Shown one piece after another: positions 1-64,000 of a DNA stretch of 64,000 bases. The notes beneath the pieces are model-generated. The model saw only the letters and a list, made by a program, of their open reading frames with translations, was not told the origin of the DNA and searched no databases. Every line of letters begins with the position of its first letter. Positions within the stretch are counted from its first letter, which is position 1. The stretch comes from a virus, in the IMG/VR virus record IMGVR_UViG_3300028182_000001, positions 32,001 through 96,000 of that record; one strand, 5' to 3'. Made by a program: the position numbers and the translations under genes.

Positions 1-255
1 CAACAAGTGTTAGACGCTCGAATTGATAAGGTTTTAGAAGAGGAAGGTGGCAAAGACCGTAAGGTTGATGACGCTGACCACGCTCGCATCGTAAAAAATG
101 CAGAGTCTCGCTACAAACCAAATCTTGTCGATCCTATTGGTATCCGTAAGGTTATCAATCAGATGGAAGAAGATATCAATTCGTTCGAGTTAGATGTGGA
201 TGCTTCATTATCCGAAATCAACGCTCGTACGGATATCGAGTTCGAAGTCAAATAG
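1..255 (+). CDS. 5'-truncated helical/coiled-coil protein of unknown function (C-terminal part only)
   Basis: Frame is open from base 1 (CAA CAA GTG TTA...) to TAG at 253-255. The C-terminus VDPIGIRKVINQMEEDINSFELDVDASLSEINARTDIEF is amphipathic-helical. The start lies outside the window. Confidence 0.8.
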   Translation, partial: QQVLDARIDKVLEEEGGKDRKVDDADHARIVKNAESRYKPNLVDPIGIRKVINQMEEDINSFELDVDASLSEINARTDIEFEVK

Positions 256-289
256 TAGGTTGACTCCCTCTCTCTGAGAGGGACAAGCC

Positions 290-652
290 TTTGCTAACAC
301 ACCGACACTTACCAACCAAATGCGTCCCTTACTAACGATATAGTGAGAACAAGATACTTTTGACAGATTAGTCAAAACTAAGCGGTAGCCAAATTGGGCT
401 AATACATATATGATAGTACCCCCGAGGAAGCGGGGTACAAACAGGTGTAAGAAGCTCAAAGCTAAGTGTTCAAAGGTTGACAAGTTAAAAGTTCTTATGC
501 GTTCAAAGGTAATAGTTGTACAGGTCAAAGAGGGCAAGATGAGTCTCCAAAAGAGAGACTAGCCCGTAAAGGTCGATAAAATCCACTGTAAAAGGTTTGC
601 GAGAGTTCATTTGTGGTCTCCGTAGGTGCCTAGTGGCTGGTGTGGTGGCAAA
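290..652 (+). ncRNA. Candidate large structured non-coding RNA with internal heptamer-repeat tract
   Basis: TTTGCTAACACACC (290-303) pairs with GGTGTGGTGGCAAA (639-652). Internal hairpins lie at 328-347, 358-377, 386-401, 416-438, 532-565 and 598-624. A 7-nt repeat tract spans 441-533. An intrinsic terminator follows, and there is no credible + strand ORF. Confidence 0.7.
441..533 (+). repeat. Degenerate 7-nt repeat array (AAAGTTC-like; G4 invariant, T6 in all but the last unit)
   Basis: ACAGGTG 441, GAAGCTC 451, AAAGCTA 458, AGTGTTC 465, AAAGGTT 472, CAAGTTA 481, AAAGTTC 488, TGCGTTC 498, AAAGGTA 505, ATAGTTG 512, ACAGGTC 520, AAAGAGG 527. Further copies at 568 and 591. Confidence 0.7.
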
Positions 653-662
653 TAATAGATGT

Positions 663-698
663 AAAAGACTCCTCGTCTCCTTTCGAGGGGTCTTTTTT
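663..698 (+). terminator. Intrinsic terminator
   Basis: AAAAGACTCCTCG-loop-CGAGGGGTCTTTT followed by a T run. Confidence 0.85.
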
Positions 699-710
699 CG
701 TATGTAGAAG

Positions 711-720
711 TCCTATATTA
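711..720 (+). promoter_or_regulatory. Putative late promoter (variant TCCTATATTA)
   Basis: Variant of the TGTTATATTA motif, in intergenic position just after a terminator and before the 755 CDS. Confidence 0.5.
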
Positions 721-754
721 CACTGGTAAGACCAAATGTGAAAGGTGGGACTCT

Positions 755-1594
755 ATGCTACAAGTTAAATCATTTAGTGGAGCAACACATGCAGAACAGA
801 TTCAAAACGCAATCAATGCTGCAAGTGTAAGCACAACAGACAAGACTGTACAACTAGAAGAGTTTAAAGACTACTACATCACTGCACCTATCATCATTAA
901 GAAGAACGTGGAACTACTATTTGGCTATGGTACAAAACTAGTTATTGGTAGTAACGTACGTGTACTAGAATTAGAGACGAACGCATCCGTGACAAATCCG
1001 TACATCGCTATTGACGATCCGTCATTTGATTCTGCGGTCTTCTACTTGGATGGTAAGAATAAGTTTTATAACACATGGAACAGAACATCTATTAAGAACG
1101 GTGTCATCGTTAACTGGGCAGGTTCTTACAAAGGCGTAGGTATCTCATGCTTTGCAGGTGGAACTGGTCACGAAGTATCATTCGTAAACTTCTTCGACAT
1201 CAAGATTAGTGGTCTACGAAGAGGGTTAGAGCTACGAGCAGCTAAACCATATACAGGTATGGCTTGGGTGAATGCGAATAGATTTAAAGACATCTCATTA
1301 GATGATTGTATTGAAATGATTGTAATTGAATCTTCTGAAACGATCCCGAACGAATGTAGTGGAAATATGTTCACTGGACTTCAAATACAACCTTCTGCTA
1401 TGACAACAACAGTACTACGTGTGAACGGGCAACAGAACCGATTCGAGGGTATGCTTTGGGATACTCACTTGATTTCAACTCCTAGTGCATTCGTTCACTT
1501 TACGAATACAAGCTCGTACAACAAGATAGATTTTAACGGATCGGTGCCGACTGCAAAAGTATCCGATGCAGGTGCATTCAATAAAGTACTTTAA
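755..1594 (+). CDS. Right-handed beta-helix (pectate-lyase-like) protein, possible virion-associated carbohydrate-binding protein or depolymerase
   Basis: N-terminal 'AEQIQNAINAA...TVQL...YYITAPIIIKKNVEL' pattern typical of pectate_lyase_3-like beta-helices; Asn/Ile-rich repeats; RBS AAAGGTGG. Confidence 0.6.
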   Translation: MLQVKSFSGATHAEQIQNAINAASVSTTDKTVQLEEFKDYYITAPIIIKKNVELLFGYGTKLVIGSNVRVLELETNASVTNPYIAIDDPSFDSAVFYLDGKNKFYNTWNRTSIKNGVIVNWAGSYKGVGISCFAGGTGHEVSFVNFFDIKISGLRRGLELRAAKPYTGMAWVNANRFKDISLDDCIEMIVIESSETIPNECSGNMFTGLQIQPSAMTTTVLRVNGQQNRFEGMLWDTHLISTPSAFVHFTNTSSYNKIDFNGSVPTAKVSDAGAFNKVL

Positions 1595-1623
1595 GAACTC
1601 CTTAGTGAGTTCTTTTTCTTTTT
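1593..1623 (+). terminator. Intrinsic terminator
   Basis: AAGAACTC-CTTAGT-GAGTTCTT followed by a T run. Confidence 0.8.
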
Positions 1624-1716
1624 GTAACGGTCTCTAGCACGGGTCGTATCTAACTACTGTGATATAATTAAGATACACATTACGTACTCCGTATTCACTA
1701 AATTACTACTATGTAG

Positions 1717-1726
1717 TCTTATATTA
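1717..1726 (+). promoter_or_regulatory. Putative late promoter (TCTTATATTA)
   Basis: One mismatch to TGTTATATTA; upstream of the portal operon. Confidence 0.55.
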
Positions 1727-1737
1727 TATCTAAGGGC

Positions 1738-2046
1738 GTGAGCTATGTGAGTTTATTCAGCAAAGATACGAAATGGAAGAAAGCTAAACAACTTCTGAAC
1801 CACAACTACACATGGTTGGAAGTCATTAGCTACTATAAGTCACTAGGTGGTACCAATGTGTCCGTTTACTCTGTTATCGAAGGTGATAAACGGTTGATTG
1901 TAGATTTAACCGATGATGACCAAGTGCTTCTAGTAAACAAGCATAACGAGTTAGTCAAAGATACTTATGATAACGTATTGAACAGTCGTAAAGTATTTGA
2001 GTACCACGAAGACAACTCACGAAACCCCGTTGAATACAAAACATAA
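1738..2046 (+). CDS. Hypothetical protein upstream of portal
   Basis: 102-aa ORF in operon position; start codon uncertain. Confidence 0.7.
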   Translation: MSYVSLFSKDTKWKKAKQLLNHNYTWLEVISYYKSLGGTNVSVYSVIEGDKRLIVDLTDDDQVLLVNKHNELVKDTYDNVLNSRKVFEYHEDNSRNPVEYKT

Positions 2047-2072: not shown

Positions 2073-3749
2073 ATGAGTGTATTAGACTGGTTCAATAATC
2101 GAAGTAATGATATGCCACCTGAGAATATCAGAAAGGTAGACGACAACCTTCTACTGGCTATCAAACACTTAGAAGATGAACAGATACAGAAAAGTAAATC
2201 AAGCGGCCAAGGACGGGCTAAGGCATATGAGGAACCTCTTTTAGGTAGTATGTCGATGAACCCTGATTACAAAGAAGCTCCTTCGTCAAGAGGGAATCAT
2301 AACTTACTAGAGACATTGAAGTTATGGTCAAGAAAGAATATTATACTTAACGCAATTATTAATACTCGTGTAAACCAAGTATCGTTATTCTGTACTCCTG
2401 CTAGACATAGTGATAGAGGGATCGGATACGAGGTTCGATTAAAGAACCCGTTAGATAAACCAACTTCACATGACATTGCGAAGATGGAACGTATTGAAGA
2501 CTTCCTGCAACATACAGGTAAGAGTCACGATGATTTCACGAGAGATAATCTCCGAGCATTTGTAAAGAAACTTGTTCGAGATAGATTGGTATATGACAAG
2601 ATTAACTTCGAGCTTATCTACGATACAAAAGGTGAGTTAAACCGATTCAAAGCGGTCGATGCGTCTACTATCTATGTAGCCGTAGATGAGAAAGGTCATG
2701 AACCTAAAGGAAAGAATGTTGCCAAGTACGTACAGATTCTAGAGCGTAGAAAGGTAGCAGAATTTAAAGCAAAAGAAATGGCTTGGGAGGTACACAATCC
2801 GAGAACCGATATTACAGTCGGTCGCTACGGATATTCCGAGTTAGAGGTTGCTATGAACCACTTACAGTACCACGAAAATACAGAGCTATTCAATGCTAGG
2901 TACTTCGCACAAGGTGGTACTACACGAGGTCTATTACATATCAAAACTGGACAAGACCAATCAAACCAAGCGTTACAGGCATTTAGACGTGAATGGACCG
3001 CAATGTTCAGTGGGATCAATGGAGCTTGGAAGATTCCTGTAATCTCTGCCGAGGATGTTAATTTCGTTAACATGACTCAATCATCTAGAGATATGGAATT
3101 TGAGAAGTGGTTGAACTATTTAATTAACGTATGTTGCTCTATCTATGCTATTGACCCATCGGAGATTAACTTCCCTAACCGTGGGGGAGCTACAGGTAGT
3201 AGCGGTAACTCTCTAAACGAAGGTAGCACGAAAGAGAAACATCGTAGCTCTAAAGATAAAGGGTTAGAGCCTTTACTGAAGTTTATCGAAGATGCAATCA
3301 ACAAATATATCGTTGCACAATTTGGGGATCGTTACTTATTTAGTTTCGTTGGTGGGGATGTTCAAACAGAACGTGAGATTATCGAGATACTAGCAGCTAA
3401 AGCAGAAATCGGTCTAACAATTAACGATGTTCGTAATGAACTAGGTTTACCTCCTATCGAAGGTGGAGACATCATTCTAAATGGTGTTCACGTACAACGT
3501 CTAGGTCAAATCATGCAAGAAGAGATGATGAAACAACAAATGGCTATGACACCTAACGGACAAGTTCCAGGTAACAAGAAAGAGCAGACACCGAAGGAAG
3601 AGAAGTCCCAAGCAGAGCAAAAAGGGATGAACGGTAACTCTAGTAATGTTAACGGTAAAGGAACCCACAACAAAGGGGTAGGCAAAGACGGACAGGTTAA
3701 AGGTGCGAAGAATACAAACGCTTCAAAACAAGGCGGTAAAGGTAAATAA
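2073..3749 (+). CDS. Portal protein
   Basis: Phage_portal-like motifs (GYSELE, NARYFAQGGTTRGLL, DMEFEKWLNYLIN, LTINDVRNELGLPPIEGGD); lies before protease and capsid. Confidence 0.93.
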   Translation: MSVLDWFNNRSNDMPPENIRKVDDNLLLAIKHLEDEQIQKSKSSGQGRAKAYEEPLLGSMSMNPDYKEAPSSRGNHNLLETLKLWSRKNIILNAIINTRVNQVSLFCTPARHSDRGIGYEVRLKNPLDKPTSHDIAKMERIEDFLQHTGKSHDDFTRDNLRAFVKKLVRDRLVYDKINFELIYDTKGELNRFKAVDASTIYVAVDEKGHEPKGKNVAKYVQILERRKVAEFKAKEMAWEVHNPRTDITVGRYGYSELEVAMNHLQYHENTELFNARYFAQGGTTRGLLHIKTGQDQSNQALQAFRREWTAMFSGINGAWKIPVISAEDVNFVNMTQSSRDMEFEKWLNYLINVCCSIYAIDPSEINFPNRGGATGSSGNSLNEGSTKEKHRSSKDKGLEPLLKFIEDAINKYIVAQFGDRYLFSFVGGDVQTEREIIEILAAKAEIGLTINDVRNELGLPPIEGGDIILNGVHVQRLGQIMQEEMMKQQMAMTPNGQVPGNKKEQTPKEEKSQAEQKGMNGNSSNVNGKGTHNKGVGKDGQVKGAKNTNASKQGGKGK

Positions 3750-5691: not shown

Positions 5692-7134
5692 ATGGGTGCT
5701 GAATTAAATAAAGACAAACAAGTACAAGCAGAGCCTGAAGTACGTAAATTACCTCAAGCGGCTGAAGACAAAATTGCAGACTTACAAAAATCGTTTACGA
5801 CAGGAGTAGGCATCACACCTGATACACAGCTTGACGCTGCGGCTTTAAGACGTGAATACCTTGAAGACGAAGTTAAGATGTTAACTTGGGATAACTCAGA
5901 CTTCACGATTTACCCATTAATTGCTAAACAACAAATCTCTAACACAGTTGCAAAGTATGCAGTGTTCAACCAACACGGACGTACAGGGCATAGTCGTTTC
6001 GTTAGTGAGATTGGGGTAGCAAGCATCAACGATCCTAACATCCGTCAAAAGACTGTACAAATGAAGTTCATCTCAGACACTAAGCAACAATCTATCGCTG
6101 CTGGTCTAGTGAACAACATCTCTGACCCTATGACTATCCTTACAGAAGATGCTATCTCTGTAATTGCTAAGTCTATCGAGTGGGCAATTTTTTACGGAGA
6201 TGCGTCTCTATCTGCTGAAACAGATCAACAATCAGGTATCGAGTTCGATGGTTTACACAAACTTATCGACCAAAAAACGAACATCATTGACTTAAAAGGT
6301 CAGTCTCTATCTGAAGCAGTGCTTAACAAAGCGGCTGTAATCGTAGGTAAAGGTTACGGTAAAGCTACAGATGCGTTTATGCCGATTGGGGTGCAAGCAG
6401 AGTTCACGAATAACCTATTAGACCGTCAACGTGTAATTCAACCGTCTAACGCAGGTGGATTCTCAACTGGTTTCACTATCAACCAATTCTTATCAGCTCG
6501 TGGTGCTATCAACTTACACGGTTCTACTATCATGGAGAACGACAACGTATTAGTTGAAAACCGCTTACCGCAAGCAAACGCTCCACTTCCAGTTAAAACA
6601 CTTAAAGCAACTGTTAAAGCTGCTGACAAAGGTGGATTCACAACTGAAGATAAGAGCCTATCGTACAAAGTAGTAGTATTCTCTAACGAAGCTGAGTCTG
6701 TAGCTTCAGATGCTGTAACTGCGGCTCTAACTGATGCAACAAGTTCTGTAACGTTAGAAATCGAGTTACAACCTATCTACCAAGCTCAACCACAATTCGT
6801 AGTAGTTTACCGTCAAGGTGCTCAAACTGGACACTACTTCCAAATTGCACGTATCCCAGTGGCTAAAGCTAGTGACTTAAACGTAATCACATTCGTGGAT
6901 CGTAACGAAATCATCCCTGAAACAACTGATGTATTCGTTGGAGAAATGAACCAAAACGTTCTTAGCTTACTAGAGTTAATGCCAATGATGCGTCTACCAT
7001 TGGCGCAAATGAACGCTACATACACGTTCTCAGTACTATGGTACGGTGCTCTAGCATTATACGCTCCTAAAAAATGGGTACGTATCAAGAACGTTAAATA
7101 CATCCCTGCATTAGCAGCTGATGTGACTCTATAG
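5692..7134 (+). CDS. Major capsid protein precursor
   Basis: LQKSFTTGVGITPDTQLDAAALRREYL and LWYGALALYAPKKWVRIKNV closely resemble SPO1/Twort/A511-type capsid proteins. Confidence 0.96.
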   Translation: MGAELNKDKQVQAEPEVRKLPQAAEDKIADLQKSFTTGVGITPDTQLDAAALRREYLEDEVKMLTWDNSDFTIYPLIAKQQISNTVAKYAVFNQHGRTGHSRFVSEIGVASINDPNIRQKTVQMKFISDTKQQSIAAGLVNNISDPMTILTEDAISVIAKSIEWAIFYGDASLSAETDQQSGIEFDGLHKLIDQKTNIIDLKGQSLSEAVLNKAAVIVGKGYGKATDAFMPIGVQAEFTNNLLDRQRVIQPSNAGGFSTGFTINQFLSARGAINLHGSTIMENDNVLVENRLPQANAPLPVKTLKATVKAADKGGFTTEDKSLSYKVVVFSNEAESVASDAVTAALTDATSSVTLEIELQPIYQAQPQFVVVYRQGAQTGHYFQIARIPVAKASDLNVITFVDRNEIIPETTDVFVGEMNQNVLSLLELMPMMRLPLAQMNATYTFSVLWYGALALYAPKKWVRIKNVKYIPALAADVTL

Positions 7135-8340: not shown

Positions 8341-9135
8341 ATGGCAGAGAAACCATCTATGCTCCAAACGATGTCTACGGCCGCGATCCGTACAGAGATG
8401 TTAGACATCCACGTTGACTCTATGTCCCTTCCTGCTCTTTGGGAGAAGTCGTATCTATGCCCTTGCCGAGATAAAGCGACACGACAACCGAACCAATCAT
8501 GTAAGGTATGTCATGGTCGTGGGATTGCATACCTACCTGGAACAAAGATAGGTATTATCGTCCAATCTCAAGAGAAGGGTGTATTCAACGGAGACTTGGG
8601 ATTAATGGACTCAGGAACTGCCATTGGTACTCCTGACCGAGATTACCAAGTAGCTTTCCGAGATAGACTTACGATCCTAGCTCCTGATTCTACTATCTCC
8701 CAATCTTTTATTTTCGATGTAACGTCACGTAGGGTAAAGAACGGATTCTACATGGTATACGATGTCAAGTCTATCGAACTTGTTAGAACGATGGAAGATG
8801 AACTAGTAGAAGGTACAGACTACACGTTTGACCGTGCTAAGAACCTGTTCTACCCTAAGGAACACTTAATGGGACAGAACGTATCTATGAACATTAAAAC
8901 GACTCTACGGTACCTTGTAGCCGACCTATTGAAGGAACATCGTTACGCAAGGGACACAGGTGGAAAGTTACAACGTCTACCACAGAAGCTATTGCTAAAA
9001 CGTGAGGACGTATTCATTGATAAGGAAGCATTCGAAATTGGAGTAGATAATAAAGAGCTTAGTCTAGAGATTGATGCGAAGAGTAAACCGAACCCTGATG
9101 GTCTGAACGGATTCTTTAGGAAGCGTGAAGGCTAA
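8341..9135 (+). CDS. Neck/head-completion protein with Cys motif
   Basis: CPC...CxxCxGxG motif; neck-region synteny. Confidence 0.7.
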   Translation: MAEKPSMLQTMSTAAIRTEMLDIHVDSMSLPALWEKSYLCPCRDKATRQPNQSCKVCHGRGIAYLPGTKIGIIVQSQEKGVFNGDLGLMDSGTAIGTPDRDYQVAFRDRLTILAPDSTISQSFIFDVTSRRVKNGFYMVYDVKSIELVRTMEDELVEGTDYTFDRAKNLFYPKEHLMGQNVSMNIKTTLRYLVADLLKEHRYARDTGGKLQRLPQKLLLKREDVFIDKEAFEIGVDNKELSLEIDAKSKPNPDGLNGFFRKREG

Positions 9136-18539: not shown

Positions 18540-21500
18540 ATGGCAGGAAATAAACAAGATTATATTATTGAGTTGGACGCTAAGATAGATGGTGCCGTAG
18601 CTAAGTTAAATAAAATCCGTAAGATGATGGACGATATCGAACGTATTCGTGATAAAGGTGCAGACAATAACTACACTGCAAGCACACAAGATATCAACAA
18701 GAATATGCGTGTCATGAAGTTACTTACACAACAGTATAACCAAGCAAACGAGGAACTTAAAAAGTTACAGAGCCAAATCAATAAAACTCCTAAAGGTGAC
18801 AAACGTAACGAGCAACATAAACGTGTACGTGAGGAGCAGAAAGCGATCCGTAGAGAGTACGATAGTACGTTAGGTAAGTTCCGTGAGATTGCTTCCTTCC
18901 AACAAAAATACTCTAAAAACTTCAACGCTACAGTCGGACAAATCAACCTTCCTACGAAAGACTTCGAGAGAACAAAAGAAGTAATTACACAGATGGTAGA
19001 AGAGTCTAACAAGGCGAAGAATAAGTTAGACGAAGTTGTAATGAAGATTCGTGAAGTAAATAAACTTGACAGACGTTCTGAAAGTCTATCACGTAGAGCA
19101 AGTGCATCTAAGTATATGTCATTCCAACAATCTTCTAACTTCAAGAAGGATCGTAACACAGTAGACGGTTATCATCAAGAGAAAGCAGATAACATTCGTA
19201 GAATGACAGAGATGTCAACTTCTGTAACATCCCTAATGAAACAGATTAAAAAGATTGAAGAGAAACCTCAAGCAACAAAAGCCGAGATGGATCGTAAACT
19301 TGAGATGCAAAGAACTATCGAGTCTATGGACAAAGAGTTCGAATCTCGTACTGAATTAAACCGTGTACTAGAACGTACCATTGCCAACATGGAAAGATAC
19401 AACAGTACAGTACAAGGTGTAACAGTTAAGCCTGAACGTGGAACATTTAAAGGTATGGCTTACGAGCGTGCTCCTGCTATCGGTTTAGCAATCACTGGTG
19501 CCGTGGCCGCTGCTCTAGGAAGTCTGTATCACCAAGGGGCTTCTATCGACAAAGGTATGCGACAAGATGAAATCTCTATCGGTCAACGTATCGGTATGGA
19601 CGGATCGCAGTGGAGAGAGGACATCCGTAACAACGCTCTTAACTCAGGTCTGAAAGATAAACTAGGTATGTCAGGTCAAGAGATGATTGGATTCCAAGAG
19701 AATTATCTATCTAAACGTGGCTTCAGTGGTATGCAAGATATGAATGATGCTATGCAAAACCAAGCTATCTTTAGCCGTGTAAGTGGTATCGGTACAGAAG
19801 ATACGAAGTCATTCTATAACACTGTATACGGTGCTGGTCCTGTTAACGGTAAACAAACGAAGGAAATCCAAAACGCATTCCTTGGGGCTATCAAACGTAG
19901 TGGTATGGAAGGTCGAGAAAAAGACCAACTAAAAGCGTTAGATGGTATCTTATCAGGTATGTCTGATGGTCGTTCTATGACGAACGATGAAATCATGAAC
20001 ACAATGGGTCTACAATCCGCTTTAGCTCAAACTGGAAACCGTTCTCTACAAGGAGAAAAAGGTGGAAAGATGTTACAGAGCTTAGACCAAGGTATTCGTA
20101 ACGGTATTGACAATCCGATGGTACGTATGGTATTCGGTCAAGGTACTAAGTATCAAGGGCTATCAGGTCGTTGGGAGCTTACTAAGCGATTGGAAAAAGG
20201 TATCTCGGATATAGACAACGTTAGAGACATCGCATCATTTGCACAGTCTCAAGGTGCTACAAAAGAGGATCAGAACATGAACTTCCACGCCTTTGCTCGT
20301 AATAGCTTAGGTGCCGACATTACCGCTCAACAAGCCGAAGCATTCATGGACGCTTATCGTAAGGGAGACCTGAATGATAAGAACATCCAAGATATCCTGA
20401 AAGAGGATGCAAGTGTCGGTAATAAAGTTTCTAAAGACAAAATGGAAGAGTACAAAAAGTCCAGTGCGGCTACTAACAACCAAAGCGATGCTACTACAGA
20501 GAAACAGGCCGCAGGTATTTATGATATGGGTGAAGCAGTCCGAAAAGCTAATGGTGCATTAAGTGGGATACACCCTGCCGCTTATGCGGCTATTGCGGCT
20601 CTAGGTGCTCTAACTATAGCATTTGCCGCAGCTGCAACGTCATTCGCAATCTCCTCAGGTGTCCGTTCCCTAGCTTCTAGTTCGTTCGGAGGTAAAGGTA
20701 AACGAGGAGGAAGAGGTGGAGGACGAGGTGGCGGTGGAGGAGGAGTAACCCCTCCTATCGTTGGTGGTGGAAGTGGACGTACTTCTACTGGTGGATCGGG
20801 TAGCGGTCCTGTAGCATGGAGACGAAATGCAACAACACCTGGAGCTTCTTCGGCACCTAAGCAAAACTTCTTTAGCAGAATGTTCGGTGGAGGTTCAGGC
20901 GCTTCCTCAGGTGCAGTTGCAGGTGGTACTGTAGCAGGTGCTTCTAGTGGGGGAGGATTCCTTAAAGGAGCAGGTAAAGTTGCAGGTAAGGCTATGTTAC
21001 CAATAGCGGCCATAATGGGTATTAACGAGATTATGAGCGCACCGAAAGAGAAGAAAGGGGAAACTACTGGTTCAGTTGCAGGAGGTATCCTTGGAGGTAT
21101 CGGTGGAGGTATGGCCGCAGGTGCCCTAGCAGGTTCGGTTGTTCCAGGAGCAGGTAACGTAGTCGGAGCTATCATCGGTGGTGTCGGTGGACTTATTGGT
21201 GGTATCGCAGGTGCTTTCGGTGGAGGAAAAATCGGTAGTTGGTTTGACTCTGATTCCGATAAAGAGAAAAAGAAGAAAGAGGAAGCAAAGGCTAAAGCTA
21301 AAGCGAAGGAAGAAAAGGCTAAGGCAGAAGCTAAAGCGACTAGTTCATCTAGCATCACAGGGTTCGGACAACAAGGCGGTACTGTAGCAGGTTACACTGC
21401 AACTGGTATGGCGATGGGTACAACGGCAGGTGTAATGGCTAGTAACCTTGACCCAGGACTAACTAACCAAGTTGTAACTCCTGAAGTAGGTAACGGTGTC

Positions 21501-22391
21501 AACTCTACAAACACGCAAGTAGATAGAGAGAACACAAACACGAAACAACGTACGGAAGTTACAAAGACTGACAACCTTTCTTACGAGCGTGAGAACCTTA
21601 ACATCTACGAAAGAGCGTTAATGAAAGCAGAACAACTTCTAGCTCAAGCTCGTTCTCAAAACGGTATCTTTGGTAACGGTAATGGTGCAGGAGGTGCTGG
21701 TGGCGCAGGTGGAGGAATGGGAGTTACAGGTGGAGGTAAACTGCAAGTATTATCCGCAGGTCAGAAGTGGCAGAACGCAAGTAACCTGCAACAAAGTGAT
21801 TTAGGATATACTGAAGCTACTCTAACTGCGGCCGACCTAGACAACTGGATTAACTCTAAAGCTCCTGAAGGTTCTATGATGCGTGGAATGGGTGCGACAT
21901 TCCTAAAAGCAGGTCAGGAATACGGGTTAGACCCTCGTTACCTAGTTGCCCACGCTGCCGAAGAGTCTGCATGGGGTACATCACGTATAGCCAAGGATAA
22001 AGGAAACTTCTTCGGGATCGGAGCGTTTGATAACAGCCCGTACTCTAGTGCCTACGAGTTCAAAGACGGTGGAGGTACTGCGGCCGAGAAAGGTATCATG
22101 GGTGGAGCTAAGTGGATTTCTGAGAAGTACTATGGTAAAGGTCGTACAACTCTAGACAAGATGCACCAAGCAGGATACGCAACGAACAGTGACTGGGCTT
22201 CTAACATTGCTTCTATCATGGGTGGAGCACCGAAAGGTACAGGTCAAGCAGTTAACGCCACTATCAACGTAAATGTTAAAGGTGACGAGTCTGTATCTAA
22301 GAAGATTAACAACAGTAGTGAAATGAAAAAAGTCGGCAATAACATTGCAGACATGCTCGGGTTCTACTCTAAAGAGATGGTGATGACGTAA
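18540..22391 (+). CDS. Tape measure protein with C-terminal glucosaminidase (GH73-like) domain
   Basis: 1283 aa; helical N-terminus, Gly/Ala-rich hydrophobic segments, C-terminal FLKAGQEYGLDPRYLVAHAAEESAWGTS..KGNFFGIGAFD..YAT. Confidence 0.9.
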   Translation: MAGNKQDYIIELDAKIDGAVAKLNKIRKMMDDIERIRDKGADNNYTASTQDINKNMRVMKLLTQQYNQANEELKKLQSQINKTPKGDKRNEQHKRVREEQKAIRREYDSTLGKFREIASFQQKYSKNFNATVGQINLPTKDFERTKEVITQMVEESNKAKNKLDEVVMKIREVNKLDRRSESLSRRASASKYMSFQQSSNFKKDRNTVDGYHQEKADNIRRMTEMSTSVTSLMKQIKKIEEKPQATKAEMDRKLEMQRTIESMDKEFESRTELNRVLERTIANMERYNSTVQGVTVKPERGTFKGMAYERAPAIGLAITGAVAAALGSLYHQGASIDKGMRQDEISIGQRIGMDGSQWREDIRNNALNSGLKDKLGMSGQEMIGFQENYLSKRGFSGMQDMNDAMQNQAIFSRVSGIGTEDTKSFYNTVYGAGPVNGKQTKEIQNAFLGAIKRSGMEGREKDQLKALDGILSGMSDGRSMTNDEIMNTMGLQSALAQTGNRSLQGEKGGKMLQSLDQGIRNGIDNPMVRMVFGQGTKYQGLSGRWELTKRLEKGISDIDNVRDIASFAQSQGATKEDQNMNFHAFARNSLGADITAQQAEAFMDAYRKGDLNDKNIQDILKEDASVGNKVSKDKMEEYKKSSAATNNQSDATTEKQAAGIYDMGEAVRKANGALSGIHPAAYAAIAALGALTIAFAAAATSFAISSGVRSLASSSFGGKGKRGGRGGGRGGGGGGVTPPIVGGGSGRTSTGGSGSGPVAWRRNATTPGASSAPKQNFFSRMFGGGSGASSGAVAGGTVAGASSGGGFLKGAGKVAGKAMLPIAAIMGINEIMSAPKEKKGETTGSVAGGILGGIGGGMAAGALAGSVVPGAGNVVGAIIGGVGGLIGGIAGAFGGGKIGSWFDSDSDKEKKKKEEAKAKAKAKEEKAKAEAKATSSSSITGFGQQGGTVAGYTATGMAMGTTAGVMASNLDPGLTNQVVTPEVGNGVNSTNTQVDRENTNTKQRTEVTKTDNLSYERENLNIYERALMKAEQLLAQARSQNGIFGNGNGAGGAGGAGGGMGVTGGGKLQVLSAGQKWQNASNLQQSDLGYTEATLTAADLDNWINSKAPEGSMMRGMGATFLKAGQEYGLDPRYLVAHAAEESAWGTSRIAKDKGNFFGIGAFDNSPYSSAYEFKDGGGTAAEKGIMGGAKWISEKYYGKGRTTLDKMHQAGYATNSDWASNIASIMGGAPKGTGQAVNATINVNVKGDESVSKKINNSSEMKKVGNNIADMLGFYSKEMVMT

Positions 22392-22433
22392 TGTCATCCC
22401 TCTCTTCTTTTTAAATATAAGGAGATGATATAA

Positions 22434-24671
22434 TTGACAACGATTGTTAAACGCTATCCCACATTCGAGATAGAGTTAATCACACAAGACACACCTTATA
22501 TCTTGAAGTACGATACACAGAAACAAATCTCACAGAAGACATTTGAAGAAGCAATTATATCCTTCAGTGTTAAGAATGCTATGGCAGATGATAGTCCTGC
22601 ATTCTCTCTAGTAATCTCTTCTAAAGAGAAGTGGGATAAGATTGTAAATGCGAATGATTTAATCCGTATCAAAGTGTTCCCTGATGTTACAAAGGGTGCT
22701 CCTGATAATCCGTACATCATGGTCGGTATGATTTCCGACATTAAGAAAGAGGGAGAGTACGGTAACGGGACATTATTATACCGTGTAACTGGACAAGCTA
22801 TGACAAAGGCTCTAATCAACTTTGACGTAGGGGTTATCCAAGAAGTAGCGACTATCATTCCTACTATCGGTTGGCTTCCTGATGATGCGGCCAATGGACT
22901 AAAGTTCTCTGCTAACAATGCGGCAGGTATCGGTAACGAACTGATGGAACGATTCATTTATAAGTACGCAGAGTATAAGTTTGCTAACGGTAAAGGACTG
23001 AGAGATTACTTAACTCATAGTTTCTCTAGTTGGACGGAAGATGAAACTCTAGCTGATCCGTCACCATTCATTAACTACCAAGGTAGTTTACGACAATTCT
23101 TAACGGACGTAACGGCAAAACCATTCAACGAACTATTCTTTGAATACACAAAGAATGGACAGTGTGTAGCTCTAATGAGACCGACACCATTCGACCCTGA
23201 TAAATGGGGGCAATTACCTCTGTATCGTTTCACAAGTGATATCGTAGTTCAAGAATCATTCGGTAAAAATGATAATGAAATGTTCTCTGTATTCGTAGTA
23301 CAGGCTCCTAACGTTAACGAGTTCAACAGTATGGACTTAGGTGTATTCCCTAAATTCCATCCTGAGCTAGTTAAACGATATGGCTATAAGCGTTTAGACG
23401 CTCAGAACCGTTATCTACTAACGGCAGGTGTCGCAGGTACCCAACAACCAGGAACGAACGCAGGAACGGGTACAGGGACTACTACACCGTCAGGAAATGG
23501 AACTGGAACAACAAATCCTACACCTGCGGTCCGAACAGAACCTGCAACTGCACAACCTAACTACGAGGAAGTAATTACATTCATTACACAGAATAAACTA
23601 CAAGACCCTGAGATGCTTAGACTTAAAAAGACTGAAGTGTACTCTCAGTTGGTAGGTCAGTTCCCATCAATGGCTCCTAGTCTAGTAAACGGTATTATCG
23701 ACTCATTGAAAGATGGTAAGTTTAGCCGAGAAATCTACACACAACTTGTAACTTCGGCAGGTGGAGGTAACAACGCTGAAGCCGCTAAAGAGAAGGGTGT
23801 AGCCAACGAAAAACTAAACAAGTACACACAAAGACTATTTAACTGGTACTGTGAGAACGCTAACTTCTATGCAGGAGATATTCGTGTATTAGGGAACCCT
23901 GCATATCGTGTGGGATCGCGAGTAATGTACGATGACTTTGAACAGGAGACTGTATGGGAGTTCTATCTAGAGTCTGTACAACATGAATTTAGTTTCCAAG
24001 GTGGCTATACTACTATATTAGGAGTAACAAGAGGTTTACCCGACCAAGGTGCAAAACGATTCAATAACCTATGGGGACAATCACAAGAGTTCAAAGGTGG
24101 ATACTTAGGTGAGAAATCGTTAGAGCAGTTAATCGAAGCAGGTAAAGCTGCTAACCCACCAGGAGGTACAGGTGGAACAGGCGGTACTGGTGGAGGAAAC
24201 TGGGGTGGTGGCTCAGGAAGTGGAGTTGCAATGCAAGCTCTAGCTACTGCACGAGAGATGACTTCTAAACCATCTGTATACGTGTTCGGTGGAGGTCGTT
24301 CAGGTAACAACCCATTCTTAAATTCCCCAATCAAAATTGACTGTTCATCATTCGTATGGTGGTGCTATAACGTACATGGTGTCCAGTTAAAAGGTGGAGC
24401 TACAGGGATGACTACAGACACGATTAAAACCGATCCGAGACTGCAACAAATTAGTGGTCGAGGTTCCGATAAAAAGCAAGCTATGAGTATGATACAGACT
24501 GGTGACATCATCTATTTCGATACGTATAAGCAGGATGGACATGTCGGAATCTATTCAGGTAACGGTAAGTTCATCGGTTCCCAAAGTACCCCAGGTATTC
24601 ATGAAGAGGATTTAAGTACGAGCTATTGGCAAAAAGTTTTTAATGGTCACGTACGTAGGTTTACAGGATAA
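22434..24671 (+). CDS. Baseplate hub/tail lysin with C-terminal NlpC/P60 peptidase
   Basis: YVFGG...DCSSFVWWCY...GDIIYF...GHVGIYSGNGKFI; TTG start with RBS AAGGAG; follows tape measure. Confidence 0.88.
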   Translation: MTTIVKRYPTFEIELITQDTPYILKYDTQKQISQKTFEEAIISFSVKNAMADDSPAFSLVISSKEKWDKIVNANDLIRIKVFPDVTKGAPDNPYIMVGMISDIKKEGEYGNGTLLYRVTGQAMTKALINFDVGVIQEVATIIPTIGWLPDDAANGLKFSANNAAGIGNELMERFIYKYAEYKFANGKGLRDYLTHSFSSWTEDETLADPSPFINYQGSLRQFLTDVTAKPFNELFFEYTKNGQCVALMRPTPFDPDKWGQLPLYRFTSDIVVQESFGKNDNEMFSVFVVQAPNVNEFNSMDLGVFPKFHPELVKRYGYKRLDAQNRYLLTAGVAGTQQPGTNAGTGTGTTTPSGNGTGTTNPTPAVRTEPATAQPNYEEVITFITQNKLQDPEMLRLKKTEVYSQLVGQFPSMAPSLVNGIIDSLKDGKFSREIYTQLVTSAGGGNNAEAAKEKGVANEKLNKYTQRLFNWYCENANFYAGDIRVLGNPAYRVGSRVMYDDFEQETVWEFYLESVQHEFSFQGGYTTILGVTRGLPDQGAKRFNNLWGQSQEFKGGYLGEKSLEQLIEAGKAANPPGGTGGTGGTGGGNWGGGSGSGVAMQALATAREMTSKPSVYVFGGGRSGNNPFLNSPIKIDCSSFVWWCYNVHGVQLKGGATGMTTDTIKTDPRLQQISGRGSDKKQAMSMIQTGDIIYFDTYKQDGHVGIYSGNGKFIGSQSTPGIHEEDLSTSYWQKVFNGHVRRFTG

Positions 24672-32737: not shown

Positions 32738-35425
32738 ATGGCAAGTGGCGGTTTTGACTTATCGACTAGTAATACCTACGTCAAAGGTAGGGTTAACTGG
32801 TCTAGTACGGCAAATACAAATGAAAACTATAGTAATGTGTACGTGGAGATGCGATTCTCCCGTACCAACTCAGGGTATACAACATACGGTAGTGGTACAT
32901 TCGGTATTTACGTAGACGGACAAGCAGTAGAGAATACTACAAGCTTCTCAATTACACAGAACTCTAACACACTAGTTGTAAGTGGTACAGTTCGAGTTAA
33001 CCATAATGCTGACGGTACGAAGAACTTTCGTATCGGGGCTAGTGGTTTCACAAACGTATTCAGTATCAACGAAGGTAGTACAACTGCTTATATGGATAAC
33101 ATCCCACGAGCAAGTACTATCTCGTCTAACGTAAGTTGGACCGCAGGAGTTAACAGTTTACCTGTAACGATTAACAGGGCGTCTAGTGCGTTCATCCATT
33201 ACGTAGAGTTACAAGTTAAGAACCCTATTAACGGATCGTGGGCTATTGTAGCTTCACGTTCTAACGTAGGTGACTCTGTAACATTCGATTTCAGTAAAGA
33301 CGAAATAACAAAGATGTACCAACAAATCGTAGCTTACGAGGAAACCCAAGCATGGATGAAAGTTGAGACATGGAACGGTGGAACATTTGTAGGTCGTAAT
33401 GAAAAGTATGGGACTGTATATGCCGCACCTACGGGAACTGCATCATACAACCAATGGGGTTCATTTGATATCGGTCAGAACATTACAGGTTGGGTTAATA
33501 ACCACATAAACGGATTCACTTACAACCTGACAATGAACTTCGGATCATTCTCACGTACTTGGAATAACGTACCTAAGGACTACACTTTATCGTTCTCTGC
33601 TGCCGAGATACAGACACTGTACGGGCAGACATCAACTGCGAATAGCAAGACAGGTACGATTACATGTCGAACACTCTATAACGGAGTGTACGCAGAGGAT
33701 GGGGCACCAGTAAGTAACGTTACTACATTTACACTAAATGTAAAGAGTAGTGACCCGACTTACGCAGGTGGATTTACATACTTAGATACAAACAGTACAA
33801 CTACAACACTAACAGGTAATAACCAATATATCGTACAAGGTAAATCTAAGTTACAGATTAAGTTACCTGCGGCCAATAAAGCTACGGCTAATAATGGGGC
33901 TACAATGTCTCGTTACGATGTTACAGTCAACGGGGTTACGCAGTCTGTTAACTACGCTACGACAGACCTTACGGTTAACTTTAACGAGGTAAACGCATCG
34001 TCAAATGCTACTGCAACAGTTACGGCAGTAGATAGTCGAGGTAACAAAGCATCTGCATCTTCTGTTATATTAATGCTACCTTATTCACCACCTGTTATTT
34101 CAGCTAGTGCGGATCGCTTAAACAACTTCGAGGACTCAACTACGATTAAGTTAAGTGGTTCAATATCTCCATTGACTATCAGCAGTGCGAATAAGAACTC
34201 ACTGACAGTTGTTAAATTCCAAAGAAGACAGGTAGGTGGTACATACGATAGTCCAGGAACTAACTTTACGATTACTGGGAATCCGAACTTCACTGCGACA
34301 GACGTTAAAGTAAACTTAGCTAATACTCTTGCTTGGGAGATTCTAATTACGGCTACGGACAAAGTAGGTTCTACTGTAACGTTAACACGTACGGTTCCAG
34401 TCGGTACTCCAATCTTCTTCATTGATACAGTGAAGAAAACAGTCGGAGTTAATAAGTTCCCTACTAGTGCGGCCAATGGTCTCGAAATAGCAGGTGACTT
34501 GGACGTTGATGGTATAATTAAAGCGAAAGCAGATCAGTGGATGGGTAATAGTAAAGTAGGGTTAGATATGCGTAACTCTGATATGAAAGGGCTAAACGGT
34601 CTATACTTCAATGACGCATCGGAATCAGGTGACGAAGGAATTAACTTCCTACGTTCAGGTAAAAGTGTAGGCTCTACAAATATAGCAGACTACGATAACT
34701 TCTGTCTCTATGACGGTGCATTTAGAATGAACAACCGAAATCTGTTTTGGCAAGAGGGCGGCCAAGCTTCGAACAACATCCGTTTAGCAGGAGATATGTA
34801 CTCACAAACTACAGGTGGGACTATCTTCGATGTATGGGGTAACATTAAAGGTCAGCCAACAGCAACGTCAATCAATACATGGTCAATCCAGGATGCTGAT
34901 GGACAAATTAGATTCCTCTGTGGTATCGGTAAGGGGGCTACAGCGACTACTGAGATTAGGTCGTATAATAGTGGGGGTATTAAGCTAATACATGACAACT
35001 ATTCAGTTGCTTCTTTTTGGCAACAAGGTGGAGGAAATCAACACATTATGCAACTAGGATCAGGTATACTTCAGTATTATAACAACTGGTTCGAATTTAA
35101 GGGACCTGGTAACTCAGGTTGGGGTAATGTGTATGGTAACTGGGTAGCACCTTCGTCAGAAGCTTATAAAAAAGACATCACTGTATTCGATGATAGTGCG
35201 TTATCTTACATACACTCTGTGAAACCTGTACTATACCAATACAAGGAACAAGACGAATCAGAGCCATATACACTAGGTTTAATTGCAGAGGAGTCTCCTG
35301 CAATCATTCAAGGAGCTAACGGTAAAGGTGTTAACGCCTACTCGATGATAACGTTACTTTGGAAAGCCATGCAAGAGATTGACGGAAAAGTAGAAAACAT
35401 TAACAGAAGAATAACACTAAGATAA
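32738..35425 (+). CDS. Tail fibre/receptor-binding protein (siphovirus DUF859-like N-terminus) with C-terminal intramolecular chaperone (peptidase S74)
   Basis: VNHNADGTK...NIPRAST N-terminal motif; C-terminal SSEAYKKDI...VKPVLYQYK...LGLIAEE...LLWKAMQEI. Confidence 0.82.
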   Translation: MASGGFDLSTSNTYVKGRVNWSSTANTNENYSNVYVEMRFSRTNSGYTTYGSGTFGIYVDGQAVENTTSFSITQNSNTLVVSGTVRVNHNADGTKNFRIGASGFTNVFSINEGSTTAYMDNIPRASTISSNVSWTAGVNSLPVTINRASSAFIHYVELQVKNPINGSWAIVASRSNVGDSVTFDFSKDEITKMYQQIVAYEETQAWMKVETWNGGTFVGRNEKYGTVYAAPTGTASYNQWGSFDIGQNITGWVNNHINGFTYNLTMNFGSFSRTWNNVPKDYTLSFSAAEIQTLYGQTSTANSKTGTITCRTLYNGVYAEDGAPVSNVTTFTLNVKSSDPTYAGGFTYLDTNSTTTTLTGNNQYIVQGKSKLQIKLPAANKATANNGATMSRYDVTVNGVTQSVNYATTDLTVNFNEVNASSNATATVTAVDSRGNKASASSVILMLPYSPPVISASADRLNNFEDSTTIKLSGSISPLTISSANKNSLTVVKFQRRQVGGTYDSPGTNFTITGNPNFTATDVKVNLANTLAWEILITATDKVGSTVTLTRTVPVGTPIFFIDTVKKTVGVNKFPTSAANGLEIAGDLDVDGIIKAKADQWMGNSKVGLDMRNSDMKGLNGLYFNDASESGDEGINFLRSGKSVGSTNIADYDNFCLYDGAFRMNNRNLFWQEGGQASNNIRLAGDMYSQTTGGTIFDVWGNIKGQPTATSINTWSIQDADGQIRFLCGIGKGATATTEIRSYNSGGIKLIHDNYSVASFWQQGGGNQHIMQLGSGILQYYNNWFEFKGPGNSGWGNVYGNWVAPSSEAYKKDITVFDDSALSYIHSVKPVLYQYKEQDESEPYTLGLIAEESPAIIQGANGKGVNAYSMITLLWKAMQEIDGKVENINRRITLR

Positions 35426-62510: not shown

Positions 62511-62541
62511 AGAAGAGGAAAATTCCTCTTCTTTTTTTTTT
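62511..62541 (+). terminator. Intrinsic terminator
   Basis: AGAAGAGGA-AAAT-TCCTCTTCT followed by a T run. Confidence 0.88.
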
Positions 62542-62551
62542 GTATAAGTTG

Positions 62552-62580
62552 TTGACTTATAGGAAACAATGATATAAGAT
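62552..62580 (+). promoter_or_regulatory. Sigma-A promoter
   Basis: TTGACT-N17-TAAGAT. Confidence 0.72.
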
Positions 62581-62604
62581 AACGTTAACGATATAAGAGA
62601 GGGC

Positions 62605-63261
62605 GTGTTGATGATGAAACATGATATTGAGAAGTATGACAGAATAACGGTAACACAAGAAGACGTGGAGCGTTTATTTGCTTGGAGAGATAAGAACAAA
62701 GAGTTAGTTCGAAACTTTAGTCCAGTATTGGAAGAAGGTGTTATCATAAACTCTGTAACACCACTTGTAAGGTACGTGTTCAAGAAAGAGGGGGATAGAT
62801 ACCTATATAGTATCATTAACAAGTCCGATGACGTAGTATTGCACGCATTAATATGGGATTATACTACAGGTGAAGGTGTAACTGCCCACACAATACTGGA
62901 TAACAGTCAAGCAAAAGACTACAACGAAACACTTATCTCCTTACATGCATCTTTAATGGCATACATGGAGCACTACCAAGATAACGAAGAGTATGTACGC
63001 AGACAGACGAACTCCGTTGTGGTAGGTCATAAGAAGCATAAGAAGTCCAAAAAGAAAACACCGATTAAGATACGTAGGAAGGTTTACTCACTTACAATTA
63101 CAGAGGAGAGCTTAAACGAAGTTACACGATCCTACGAACGCCAAATTGATAAATGGACTGTAAGAGGTCATTGGAGAAAAACAAAGAATGGTCAAGTATG
63201 GATTAAACCTCATGTCAGAGGAGAAGGGAAAGAAGTTACACCAAAAGAATATAAGTTGTAA
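62605..63261 (+). CDS. Hypothetical protein with basic C-terminal WxVRGHWR...WIKPHxRG motif
   Basis: 218 aa, own promoter; start is TTG 62608 or a nearby ATG/GTG. Confidence 0.8.
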   Translation: MLMMKHDIEKYDRITVTQEDVERLFAWRDKNKELVRNFSPVLEEGVIINSVTPLVRYVFKKEGDRYLYSIINKSDDVVLHALIWDYTTGEGVTAHTILDNSQAKDYNETLISLHASLMAYMEHYQDNEEYVRRQTNSVVVGHKKHKKSKKKTPIKIRRKVYSLTITEESLNEVTRSYERQIDKWTVRGHWRKTKNGQVWIKPHVRGEGKEVTPKEYKL

Positions 63262-63269
63262 AAAAGTTG

Positions 63270-63299
63270 TTGACTAAAAGACAACCTACATGCTATAGT
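63270..63299 (+). promoter_or_regulatory. Sigma-A promoter
   Basis: TTGACT-N18-TATAGT with extended TG. Confidence 0.7.
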
Positions 63300-63323
63300 A
63301 AGTACAGAAGTTAAGAAAAGGAG

Positions 63324-63557
63324 ATGTTACAAATGAAAATAAACGAAACAGTTTATGTGAATGGTAACTTAGAGTACGCATCTGAGGATGGTGCAATCTA
63401 CGTAGTTATTGAACACGGTACAGGAGACATAATAGGTTTGGAGTATAATGACGCTACTGTCCACACTCTATACTCATTCATGTCAAAAGTAAAGTCTGCG
63501 TACAATAGACGTGCAACAAAACAAGCATTAGAAAATATATCAATAGGAGGAGAGTAA
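63324..63557 (+). CDS. Hypothetical protein
   Basis: 77 aa, RBS AAAGGAG. Confidence 0.75.
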   Translation: MLQMKINETVYVNGNLEYASEDGAIYVVIEHGTGDIIGLEYNDATVHTLYSFMSKVKSAYNRRATKQALENISIGGE

Positions 63558-63558
63558 C

Positions 63559-63837
63559 ATGAGATACACGTTAAAGAAAGCTTTAGTTGCTAGTAGAACT
63601 TCAAGTAGTGGACGAGTTGGTACTCCGATTCTAGGGTACTCTTTGCTAGATAGCGAAACAGGAGAAGTGAGTATCTATAGTAAATATGACGCTTACCGAT
63701 TCGTAAAGTACCACAAAGCTACAAACTGCGAAGCAAAGACACGTACGATGGTGGTAGACGGGGAAAGTGAAACAATCTATTACTTAAAACCAAATGACGG
63801 AACAAAAATGAACGAATATCTATTATCAGTAGAATAG
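63559..63837 (+). CDS. Hypothetical protein
   Basis: 92 aa, RBS AGGAGG. Confidence 0.75.
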   Translation: MRYTLKKALVASRTSSSGRVGTPILGYSLLDSETGEVSIYSKYDAYRFVKYHKATNCEAKTRTMVVDGESETIYYLKPNDGTKMNEYLLSVE

Positions 63838-63849
63838 GAGGAGAATAAT

Positions 63850-64000
63850 ATGGCTAAAAGACGTTGGAGTTGTGAAAATTGTGGGTACAACGAGATAGTT
63901 GATGCTCACGCAACATTTGTATTATGTCCTGAGTGCGACTCAATAAGATTCGACCACGGTAGTATCATCGAAGATTACGATAATCTAGCCGATCCTAACA
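63850..64000 (+). CDS. 3'-truncated zinc-ribbon protein
   Basis: RBS AGGAGG, ATG 63850; MAKRRWSCENCG...LCPECDS (two CxxC); runs off the window end. Confidence 0.75.
   Translation, partial: MAKRRWSCENCGYNEIVDAHATFVLCPECDSIRFDHGSIIEDYDNLADPN

Follow-up and report, generated by a model that had tools for sequence, protein, structure and literature searches.

Why do the short palindromes GGCC, GGWCC and GATC survive in one phage genome almost only inside a few longer words? The question is raised by a 64,000-nucleotide stretch of viral DNA from the IMG/VR record IMGVR_UViG_3300028182_000001 (the window, in the following), which covers positions 32001-96000 of a 158,403-bp genome with direct terminal repeats and whose genes are nearly all structural or replication genes on the + strand. 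A preliminary description of the window had claimed that palindromic sites were purged except where an overlapping asymmetric motif, CCGC or GGATC, was modified, and that methyltransferases with these two specificities were encoded elsewhere. Our analysis argues, with a probability that we put at roughly 0.78, that two phage-encoded methylases producing 5-methylcytosine (m5C) would mark the words GRCCGC and GGATCR and thereby shield the restriction targets that these words overlap.

In the window, all 29 GGCC sites lie within GCGGCC/GGCCGC, 9 of 11 GGWCC sites read GGACCGC/GCGGTCC (the exceptions are at 19836 and 35102) and 96 of 102 GATC sites belong to GGATC/GATCC (76 CGATCC/GGATCG and 20 GGATCA/TGATCC); the six remaining GATC sites are found at 6223, 34532, 38191, 41494, 44283 and 57826. 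CCGG and GGATCC are both absent, and CGCG occurs twice. These counts bear out the preliminary description, which had reported the same contexts, the rarity or absence of CCGG and GGATCC, the same two GGWCC exceptions and five of the six GATC exceptions; its motif coordinates are all correct, and all are motif starts. The whole genome follows the same rule, with 72/72 GGCC in GGCCGC, 20/26 GGWCC in GGACCGC and 268/292 GATC in GGATCR. Individual features of the window are as follows:

129..63996: GGATCR/YGATCC array of 96 sites (47 and 49 in the two orientations), with gaps averaging 672 bp and a coefficient of variation (CV) of 0.64
2203..2208: GCGGCC, one of the 29/29 embedded GGCC sites (motif count)
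2995..3001, + strand: GGACCGC, a GGWCC embedded in GACCGC (motif count)
6223..6226: unprotected GATC (AGATCA), one of the six exceptions
8379..8389: GGCCGCGATCC, GGCCGC adjoining CGATCC, with both protecting words together (motif count)
19836..19840: GGTCC without GC flank, in the context GCTGGTCC (exception)
20803..20809, - strand: GCGGTCC, the other-strand form of GGACCGC (motif count)
35102..35106: GGACC without GC flank (exception)
63990: start of the last CGATCC in the window, with its GATC at 63991

Two null models were used, a maximal-order Markov model for the window and a synonymous-codon shuffle of the whole genome in which proteins and codon usage are kept; in a constrained version of the latter, a codon-swap Monte Carlo, any rise in avoided words is forbidden. 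Compared with the Markov expectation, GATC (102 observed, 259 expected), CCGG (0 vs 73) and GGATCC (0 vs 23) are depleted, and GCGGCC (29 vs 10) and CGATCC (76 vs 37) are enriched. The most under-represented words include GATC, CCGG, CGCG and GGACC, the most over-represented GATCC, GCCGC, CGATCC, GCGGCC and GACCGC. Because the codon shuffle places only about 10% of GGCC in GGCCGC, the 72 of 72 found in the real genome are impossible by chance. For GATC the shuffle yields about 535 copies spread over all ten flank classes (292 in the real genome), and all NGATCN classes other than GGATCR are reduced 9-70-fold. GGATCR itself occurs in every reading frame, on either strand and, at background share, in intergenic DNA. 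As codon shuffles fail to give rise to the context pattern, it is real and no coding artefact; the flank bias indeed goes beyond background composition, as had been claimed.

The phage shows about 85% nucleotide identity to the Bacillus phages Deep Blue, Bcp1, Thurquoise and JBP901, which is why we classify it, by sequence, as a virulent myovirus of the Bacillus cereus group, genus Caeruleovirus (Herelleviridae, Bastillevirinae). We compared six Caeruleovirus genomes (this phage, Deep Blue, Bcp1, BCP8-2, Z3 and Hobo), which share ancestry and are not independent replicates, with six outgroup relatives from four genera: Bastille, Phrodo, SWEP1, Nigalana and the Tsarbombavirus members BCP12 and TsarBomba. 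Outgroup word counts cover five of these, SWEP1 having been included in the PF00145 search only. In our genome a profile search revealed two adjacent PF00145 genes, the first starting 2,626 bp past the window end, with matches at genome positions 98638-99624 and 99665-100030; the expectation that methyltransferases are encoded outside the window was therefore correct as far as two C5-methyltransferase genes are concerned. We refer to them as MT-II and MT-I (together 66626-68315 in extended window coordinates):

Genome 98626-99648 (L001:1489-2508): MT-II, 340 amino acids (aa), full-length PF00145 match
Genome 99650-100315 (L001:2513-3175): MT-I, 221 aa, match to the N-terminal half of PF00145

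Both genes are present in 6/6 Caeruleovirus genomes. In the five further members every GGCC again lies in GGCCGC (52/52, 59/59, 51/51, 69/69 and 62/62), and in the genus about 90% of GATC is present as GGATCR. None of the six outgroup relatives gave a PF00145 match. GGCC is 0 in all five counted outgroups, GGWCC is 0 in four of them, and GATC amounts to 0 in Bastille, 1 in Phrodo and 0 in Nigalana. The longer words are lost as well: GCGGCC is 0 in all five, and CGATCC is 0 in three genera, wherever its core has been purged. Since these methylase-less relatives of the same host group lack GCGGCC and, in three genera, CGATCC, the two words are not intrinsically uncuttable. Among the genomes compared, the conditional pattern and the methylase cassette co-occur perfectly; the surviving words are tolerated only in the clade that has the cassette. 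Presence and absence across genomes thus uphold the view that palindromes are purged except under an overlapping modified word, but for the GATC array, discussed below, this view is incomplete. Deep Blue offers a natural experiment. It carries a third C5-methylase, Blue_147 (419 aa, L003:1717-2976), upstream of MT-II, and CCWGG is the one k-mer in which it departs from its sisters (142 copies vs 74-85, about 1.7x), which at the sequence level points to methylase-linked tolerance. No conditional context was found for CCWGG. Bcp1, Hobo and Z3 have a different third methylase (~330 aa) with no detectable k-mer effect. As a side observation on the phage itself, window positions 20000-29000 are present almost whole, as assembled contigs, in 24 soil metatranscriptome runs (2018-2019, from as many studies); this phage or a near-identical one is therefore widespread or abundant in those soils.

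The comparison also sharpens the two words. Only 2 of the 16 NNCCGC words are above the outgroups, namely GGCCGC (51-72 vs 0) and GACCGC (34-42 vs 16-20); the other 14 are depleted 2-10x, and GGTCCGC (0-1 per genome) and GGCCCGC (0) are practically or entirely missing. Read from these counts, the protecting word is GRCCGC and not plain CCGC. Likewise, the allowed GATC classes in the whole genome are GGATCG (185) and GGATCA (83), a 2.2:1 preference for GGATCG that runs contrary to composition, and the predicted protecting word for GATC is GGATCR rather than plain GGATC. GGATCC and GGATCT are missing because RGATCY is purged separately, also in methylase-less Tsarbombavirus, which tolerates GATC yet contains 0 RGATCY and 0 TGATCA. 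Of the specificities proposed earlier, the notion of overlapping asymmetric words stood, but CCGC was too wide, given the 14 depleted NNCCGC words, and GGATC probably needs narrowing to GGATCR, although the independent purge of RGATCY by itself removes GGATCY. Conservation throughout the five genomes extends to 14-18% of the positions of GGCCGC, GGATCA and GACCGC (4-12% for control 6-mers), roughly as it would with two positions out of six locked. GCGC is not rescued: its 92 sites are depleted and show no context effect. Several further observations concern neighbouring words. Of the flank-less GGWCC sites in five genomes, 10/14 read GGWCCAGC/GCTGGWCC, which to judge from these few sites may be a second, weaker protecting context for GGWCC. 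GCWGC occurs about 100 times per genome (183-295 in relatives), with a weak preference of the survivors for AGCWGC/GCWGCT (flank present in 70-83%, vs 61-72% of outgroup sites). Ala-Ala GCA-GCA pairs number 5-14 compared with 37-67 in relatives, and GCG-GCC and GCC-GCA take their place.

MT-II is predicted to be a complete C5-methyltransferase with all canonical motifs. It matches PF00145 over model positions 2-324 of 324 (176 bits, cut-off 22) and TIGR00675 with 166 bits (cut-off 100.65). Its translation shows ELFAGYG, SFPCTDIS, MENVDN, PQRRKR and AGNSI, all of which align with M.HhaI and agree with the motif set I FxGxG, IV PC, VI ENV, VIII QxRxR and X GN. M.HhaI is its best solved relative, aligning from end to end and through both recognition loops (E=2e-30), in which QxxR, TL and GGG..KTG.Y are conserved. 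To the SPbeta/SPR enzymes MT-II is about 33% identical over part of the length only; no close named or characterised homologue was found, and MT-II is confined to the genus, the next homologue being 46% identical. MT-I matches positions 1-113 of the PF00145 model alone (33.8 bits, cut-off 22) and gave no PDB match by sequence. Its AlphaFold2 model (pLDDT 80, pTM 0.82) was matched by Foldseek with a probability of 1.00 to DNMT3A/B, M.HaeIII and M.HhaI (TM ~0.5), and because the model superposes on these enzymes we count MT-I as a predicted methylase with a minimal recognition domain. A Cys/His cluster of its family (C-x5-CH plus C-x-H) resembles a zinc site, and a short insertion, ALPNGGK, is present in the Caeruleovirus versions. 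Neighbours of the two genes are an HU-like gene, small open reading frames (ORFs) and the DNA polymerase gene; there is no adjacent restriction nuclease. In BCP12 the HU-like gene directly adjoins the polymerase gene, which identifies the cassette as an insertion. In BCP8-2 and Z3 an HNH homing-type gene separates MT-II from MT-I. Family searches of the genome for N6/N4, D12 or Dam methylases, MutH and TGT were all negative. A conserved pair of both enzymes beyond the genus was considered and dropped: in a Mammaliicoccus prophage, the methylase upstream of MT-I shares no more than 29% identity with MT-II.

M.HhaI targets the C that is followed by GC, and by analogy this suggests that MT-II modifies the second C of its word, the CpG cytosine, giving GRC(m5C)GC. 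The second C of CCGC in GGACCGC is the outer C of GGACC, the base methylated by M.BceSII, as the GGWCC system of B. cereus ATCC 10987 makes GGWC(m5C) (PMC3526280). That the first C is methylated, as stated in the preliminary description, was an assumption, and by the same analogy possibly a wrong one.

We propose an explanation that starts from what the genomes show. Hosts of the phage heavily restrict GGCC, GGWCC, GATC, RGATCY, CCGG, CGCG and many 6-bp palindromes; relatives without the methylases have fully lost GGCC, and the majority of these relatives have lost GATC and GGWCC, too. Caeruleovirus has the two-gene C5-methylase cassette inserted between the HU-like and DNA polymerase genes, each enzyme presumably methylating one asymmetric word of about 6 bp, GRCCGC or GGATCR. 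Wherever such a word overlaps a palindromic target, m5C would be placed on one strand of that target, leaving it hemimethylated. Host DNA is itself hemimethylated after replication, and cognate restriction enzymes must spare such sites; it would be for this reason that GGCC persists only as GGCCGC, GGWCC as GGACCGC and GATC as GGATCR. MT-II, with its M.HhaI-like loops, most likely makes GRC(m5C)GC, which by elimination leaves GGATCR to MT-I. GGATCY would stay forbidden, since nothing blocks a separate enzyme of the RGATCY type. The narrowness of the words would also keep the number of m5C low, which would be useful where the host possesses type IV nucleases that depend on m5C; in B. anthracis at least three nucleases do so (PMC4722110).

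Several points weigh against this proposal. MT-I has SPDC and ENPRGG where the canonical PC and ENV are expected; both, together with the Cys/His cluster, are invariant across 16 MT-I homologues. Its family is very large and consists of prophage enzymes of about 210 aa from Firmicutes, with members 70-85% identical, and other carriers have GATC in any context, so that a GGATCR specificity would have to be special to the Caeruleovirus MT-I. As MT-II and MT-I always occur together, neither can be assigned to a word by presence or absence. GGC(m5C) leaves HaeIII unblocked, which counts if MT-II methylates the second C. In the genome paper of Bc431v3 the two C5-methylase genes were noted and their effect on digestibility was stated as unknown (PMC3601020). 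Finally, protection leaves the enrichment and even spacing of GGATCR and the GATCA array of Tsarbombavirus, both described below, unexplained. Carriers of the MT-I family include prophages of Bacillus, Enterococcus, Mammaliicoccus and Oceanobacillus. An attempt to obtain a word for MT-I from other carriers (the faecal phage MT835521, a PinkBerry phage and the Mammaliicoccus and Oceanobacillus prophages) showed no conditional signature; the test is uninformative because the hosts differ.

How abundant and how evenly spaced the two words are was compared with the null models. The 72 copies of GGCCGC fall within the 69-80 of the constrained shuffle and the spacing of GRCCGC is random (CV ~1); the excess over simple expectation arises because Ala-Ala and similar codon pairs are funnelled into few permitted words. 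Statistically, the abundance of GGCCGC needs only tolerance. GGATCR occurs 268 times (159-180 in the constrained shuffle), its enrichment over this null ranging from 1.5 to 2.3x. The numbers are 185 for GGATCG (59 in the free and 74-90 in the constrained shuffle) and 103 for GGATCGT (20-39 in shuffles); GGATCA alone is not enriched (83 vs 85-104). GGATCG is 3-6x commoner than every non-GATC single-mutant neighbour and is kept in all five genomes at 30% of positions (4-12% for controls). The spacing is regular, too: the CV of GGATCR is 0.66-0.70 in the six genomes, whereas sites placed at random give 0.99±0.06 and the constrained shuffle gives 0.89-1.00, and GATC-containing words have the lowest spacing CV among ~830-880 k-mers. 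Both extremes of the gap distribution fall short of expectation (116 vs 319 gaps below 150 bp; 63 vs 140 above 1300 bp), and the regularity ignores orientation and gene boundaries. The tail of the gaps decays with tau ~350 bp, faster than repulsion alone allows, because at the neutral density of ~1 per 900 bp a repulsion-only process would decay more slowly. Sites private to this genome lie at a median of 526 bp from the nearest older site (198 bp at random, p=4e-6). Statistically, GGATCR is maintained at about 1 site per 590 bp by selection for sites in gaps and against close neighbours.

A comparable array exists without the methylases. In BCP12 and TsarBomba, GATCA/TGATC is the most regular k-mer (CV 0.64 and 0.66); its regularity beats random subsets of all GATC (0/2000), and its count is neutral. 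Only 19% of GATC cores are common to Caeruleovirus and Tsarbombavirus, below the 4-mer average of 32%, so that the two arrays arose separately. Since methylase-less Tsarbombavirus has an even GATCA array, MT-I protection is not the whole story for GATC, and a duplex-level function appears to keep about 1 site per 600-750 bp. Some readings of the array were rejected: primase sites, since the pooled orientations show greater regularity than each strand alone and lose it when one set is shifted at random; one site per gene or a fixed position within genes, by the gene-boundary test; a repulsion-only model (two-site nuclease), under which sites would be sparser and the gap tail would decay more slowly than they do; and inheritance of the cores from a common ancestor with Tsarbombavirus, only 19% being shared. 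A search for a reader of the array among genes common to both array-bearing genera and absent from the GATC-free genera found none; it returned proteins of unknown function, a DUF444 sporulation-type protein and an RlaP-type nucleotidyltransferase.

Which alternatives could account for these data? For GATC, the strongest competitor is that the GGATCR array is a positively selected set of sites, read at the duplex level by a phage or host factor, e.g. as docking sites for a DNA-binding protein or as self marks halting a translocating nuclease. Methylation would then merely keep the GATC cores safe. Where GGCC and GGWCC are concerned, this complements the explanation given above; for GATC it is a rival to it. 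The excess of GGATCG and GGATCGT, the 30% conservation, the low CV in six genomes, the spacing blind to orientation and genes with its short-tailed gaps, and the appearance of new sites within gaps all favour this idea, as do the arrays of BCP12 and TsarBomba with their unshared cores. However, the search of shared genes gave no reader protein, GGATCA alone is not enriched, the null model may miss some constraint and the Caeruleovirus genomes are of common ancestry; we consider the idea plausible, at somewhat less than even odds. In an extended version, both genera would keep an evenly spaced lattice of one GATC-containing word of 5-6 bp each, about 1 per 600-750 bp (GGATCR in Caeruleovirus, VGATCA in Tsarbombavirus), and the methylase would have been recruited so that the Caeruleovirus lattice survives GATC-restricting hosts. 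This version is tentative, and we would sooner bet against it.

The remaining alternatives concern the origin of the contexts themselves. A protecting modification that is real but stems from a host methylase or from some other modification of the phage DNA seems improbable to us: the family searches of the genome returned neither another methylase nor TGT, and a host enzyme could not account for a pattern fixed throughout a genus sampled from different strains and continents and absent in sister genera. Still, the non-canonical catalytic motifs of MT-I would fit such a source, and the poor cutting of Bc431v3 DNA by A/T-only and other enzymes hints at further modification (PMC3601020). Even less credit can be given to an origin without any phage methylation, in which the contexts reflect flank preferences of host enzymes or the union of degenerate sites. 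Part of the GATC pattern does indeed come from longer sites, as RGATCY, TGATCA and many 6-bp palindromes are purged separately. Yet under the GGCC rule two particular bases are required on one flank, a dependence over 8 bp that no set of palindromes describes, and both the lack of GCGGCC and, in three genera, of CGATCC in methylase-less relatives and the perfect co-occurrence of pattern and cassette speak for phage methylation. The idea that amino-acid and codon usage produce the pattern as a side effect has next to no chance. Although 50 of the 72 GGCCGC sites encode Ala-Ala and the choice of Ala-Ala codon pairs is strongly funnelled, the shuffles, which put ~10% of GGCC into GGCCGC and leave GATC in every context, refute it, and the spread of GGATCR over every frame, either strand and intergenic DNA speaks against it as well.

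Besides these sites, other words are avoided. CCAGA/TCTGG occurs once in the window (45 expected) and 0-3 times per genome, compared with ~290 in Bastille, Phrodo and Nigalana; the corresponding numbers are ~3 vs 75-93 for CGACG/CGTCG, ~2 vs 107-124 for GAGGC/GCCTC and 1-5 vs 46-51 for CGCCG/CGGCG. The near-loss of these four asymmetric 5-mers is genome-wide in Caeruleovirus and Tsarbombavirus, BCP12 being also without CCAGC, and looks like avoidance of type IIS/III-like host enzymes. Among the 6-bp palindromes, CTGCAG, ATCGAT, GCTAGC, CTTAAG, GAGCTC, GAATTC, GTGCAC, CACGTG, CGATCG and GGATCC have zero copies in the window, in which the 4-mers CAGC/GCTG, CCAG/CTGG and AGGC/GCCT are about halved. 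HindIII and AccI reportedly do not cut the DNA of Bc431v3, and DraI, SspI, EcoRI and NdeI cut it poorly although it contains many of their sites (PMC3601020); as m5C at GRCCGC and GGATCR cannot explain this resistance, further DNA modification may exist in the genus. Two other gene groups were noted in the genome. An RtcB RNA ligase (L084:9631-10866, - strand), among the genomes compared found only in Caeruleovirus, and the RlaP-type nucleotidyltransferase just upstream of the methylase region (L086:290-1075, + strand) suggest an RNA-repair module, perhaps directed against tRNA-cleaving defences. A protein of 256 aa with an AP2 DNA-binding domain (L087:6005-6775, + strand) is likewise restricted to Caeruleovirus in this comparison; its gene and a second 256-aa ORF nearby are probably homing-endonuclease-like.

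Seen against known systems, the enzymes would resemble the multispecific C5-methylases of SPbeta, phi3T, SPR and H2 and M.BceSV, which are likewise phage-encoded m5C producers without partner nuclease that guard against GGCC-type enzymes; for the present pair this is read from sequence. SPbeta-type enzymes and M.BceSV methylate the palindromes themselves, so that their phages need no avoidance. In Caeruleovirus, unlike these, the predicted words are longer and asymmetric, protection would be conditional and hemimethylated, and purging and methylation would be combined. GGCC has reportedly been lost from the B. subtilis phages SPO1 and phi29, and in methylase-less Bastillevirinae short host-recognised palindromes are wholly lost in a similar way; unlike in SPO1 and phi29, avoidance in Caeruleovirus depends on context, with sites returning inside one longer word only. 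With the word of M.HhaI (GCGC, methylated to G(m5C)GC; PDB 10mh), the GRCCGC predicted for MT-II shares the C-G-C part only. As in the blocking of AvaII and Sau96I by dcm or CpG overlap, a methyl group from a different, overlapping word would stop cutting. Elsewhere such overlap blocking is a laboratory nuisance or part of complete restriction-modification systems; we know of no description of overlap methylation as a force shaping a whole phage genome, nor was one present in the literature searched. This search yielded no paper joining Caeruleovirus with a methyltransferase and none on conditional site avoidance. In B. cereus ATCC 10987 the prophage enzyme M.BceSV recognises GGCC, GCNGC, CCGG and GGNCC, and asymmetric systems of B. 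cereus use one methylase per strand, as M1/M2.BceSIII (PMC3526280). The GATC array finds its closest likeness in HIP1 (GCGATCGC) of cyanobacteria, which occurs together with orphan GATC and CGATCG methylases (PMC4390886). Both are known or predicted methylase words that contain GATC and stand far above expectation, genome-wide and within genes. However, HIP1 is a palindrome of cellular genomes, whereas GGATCR is asymmetric, found in a phage and only 1.5-2.3x enriched; also unlike HIP1, the sister genus has an equivalent array without any detected methylase.

Taken together, the genome can be taken as a read-out of two predicted methylase specificities, GRCCGC and GGATCR. This is of value as m5C specificities are hard to obtain by single-molecule real-time sequencing, and the authors of Bc431v3 had left the role of both methylase genes open in 2013. 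The phage would follow a mixed anti-restriction strategy, purging all sites but those that a narrow, asymmetric, hemimethylating enzyme covers, perhaps as a trade-off against those nucleases of the B. cereus group that depend on m5C. For Deep Blue, Bcp1 and related phages, which are candidates for use in biocontrol and in B. anthracis work, host range and the handling of DNA depend on such protection. The GGATCR and GATCA arrays, in turn, provide a cultured and tractable case of genome-wide word lattices. If the lattice reading is true, they would be the phage counterpart of the iterated methylase words of cyanobacteria.

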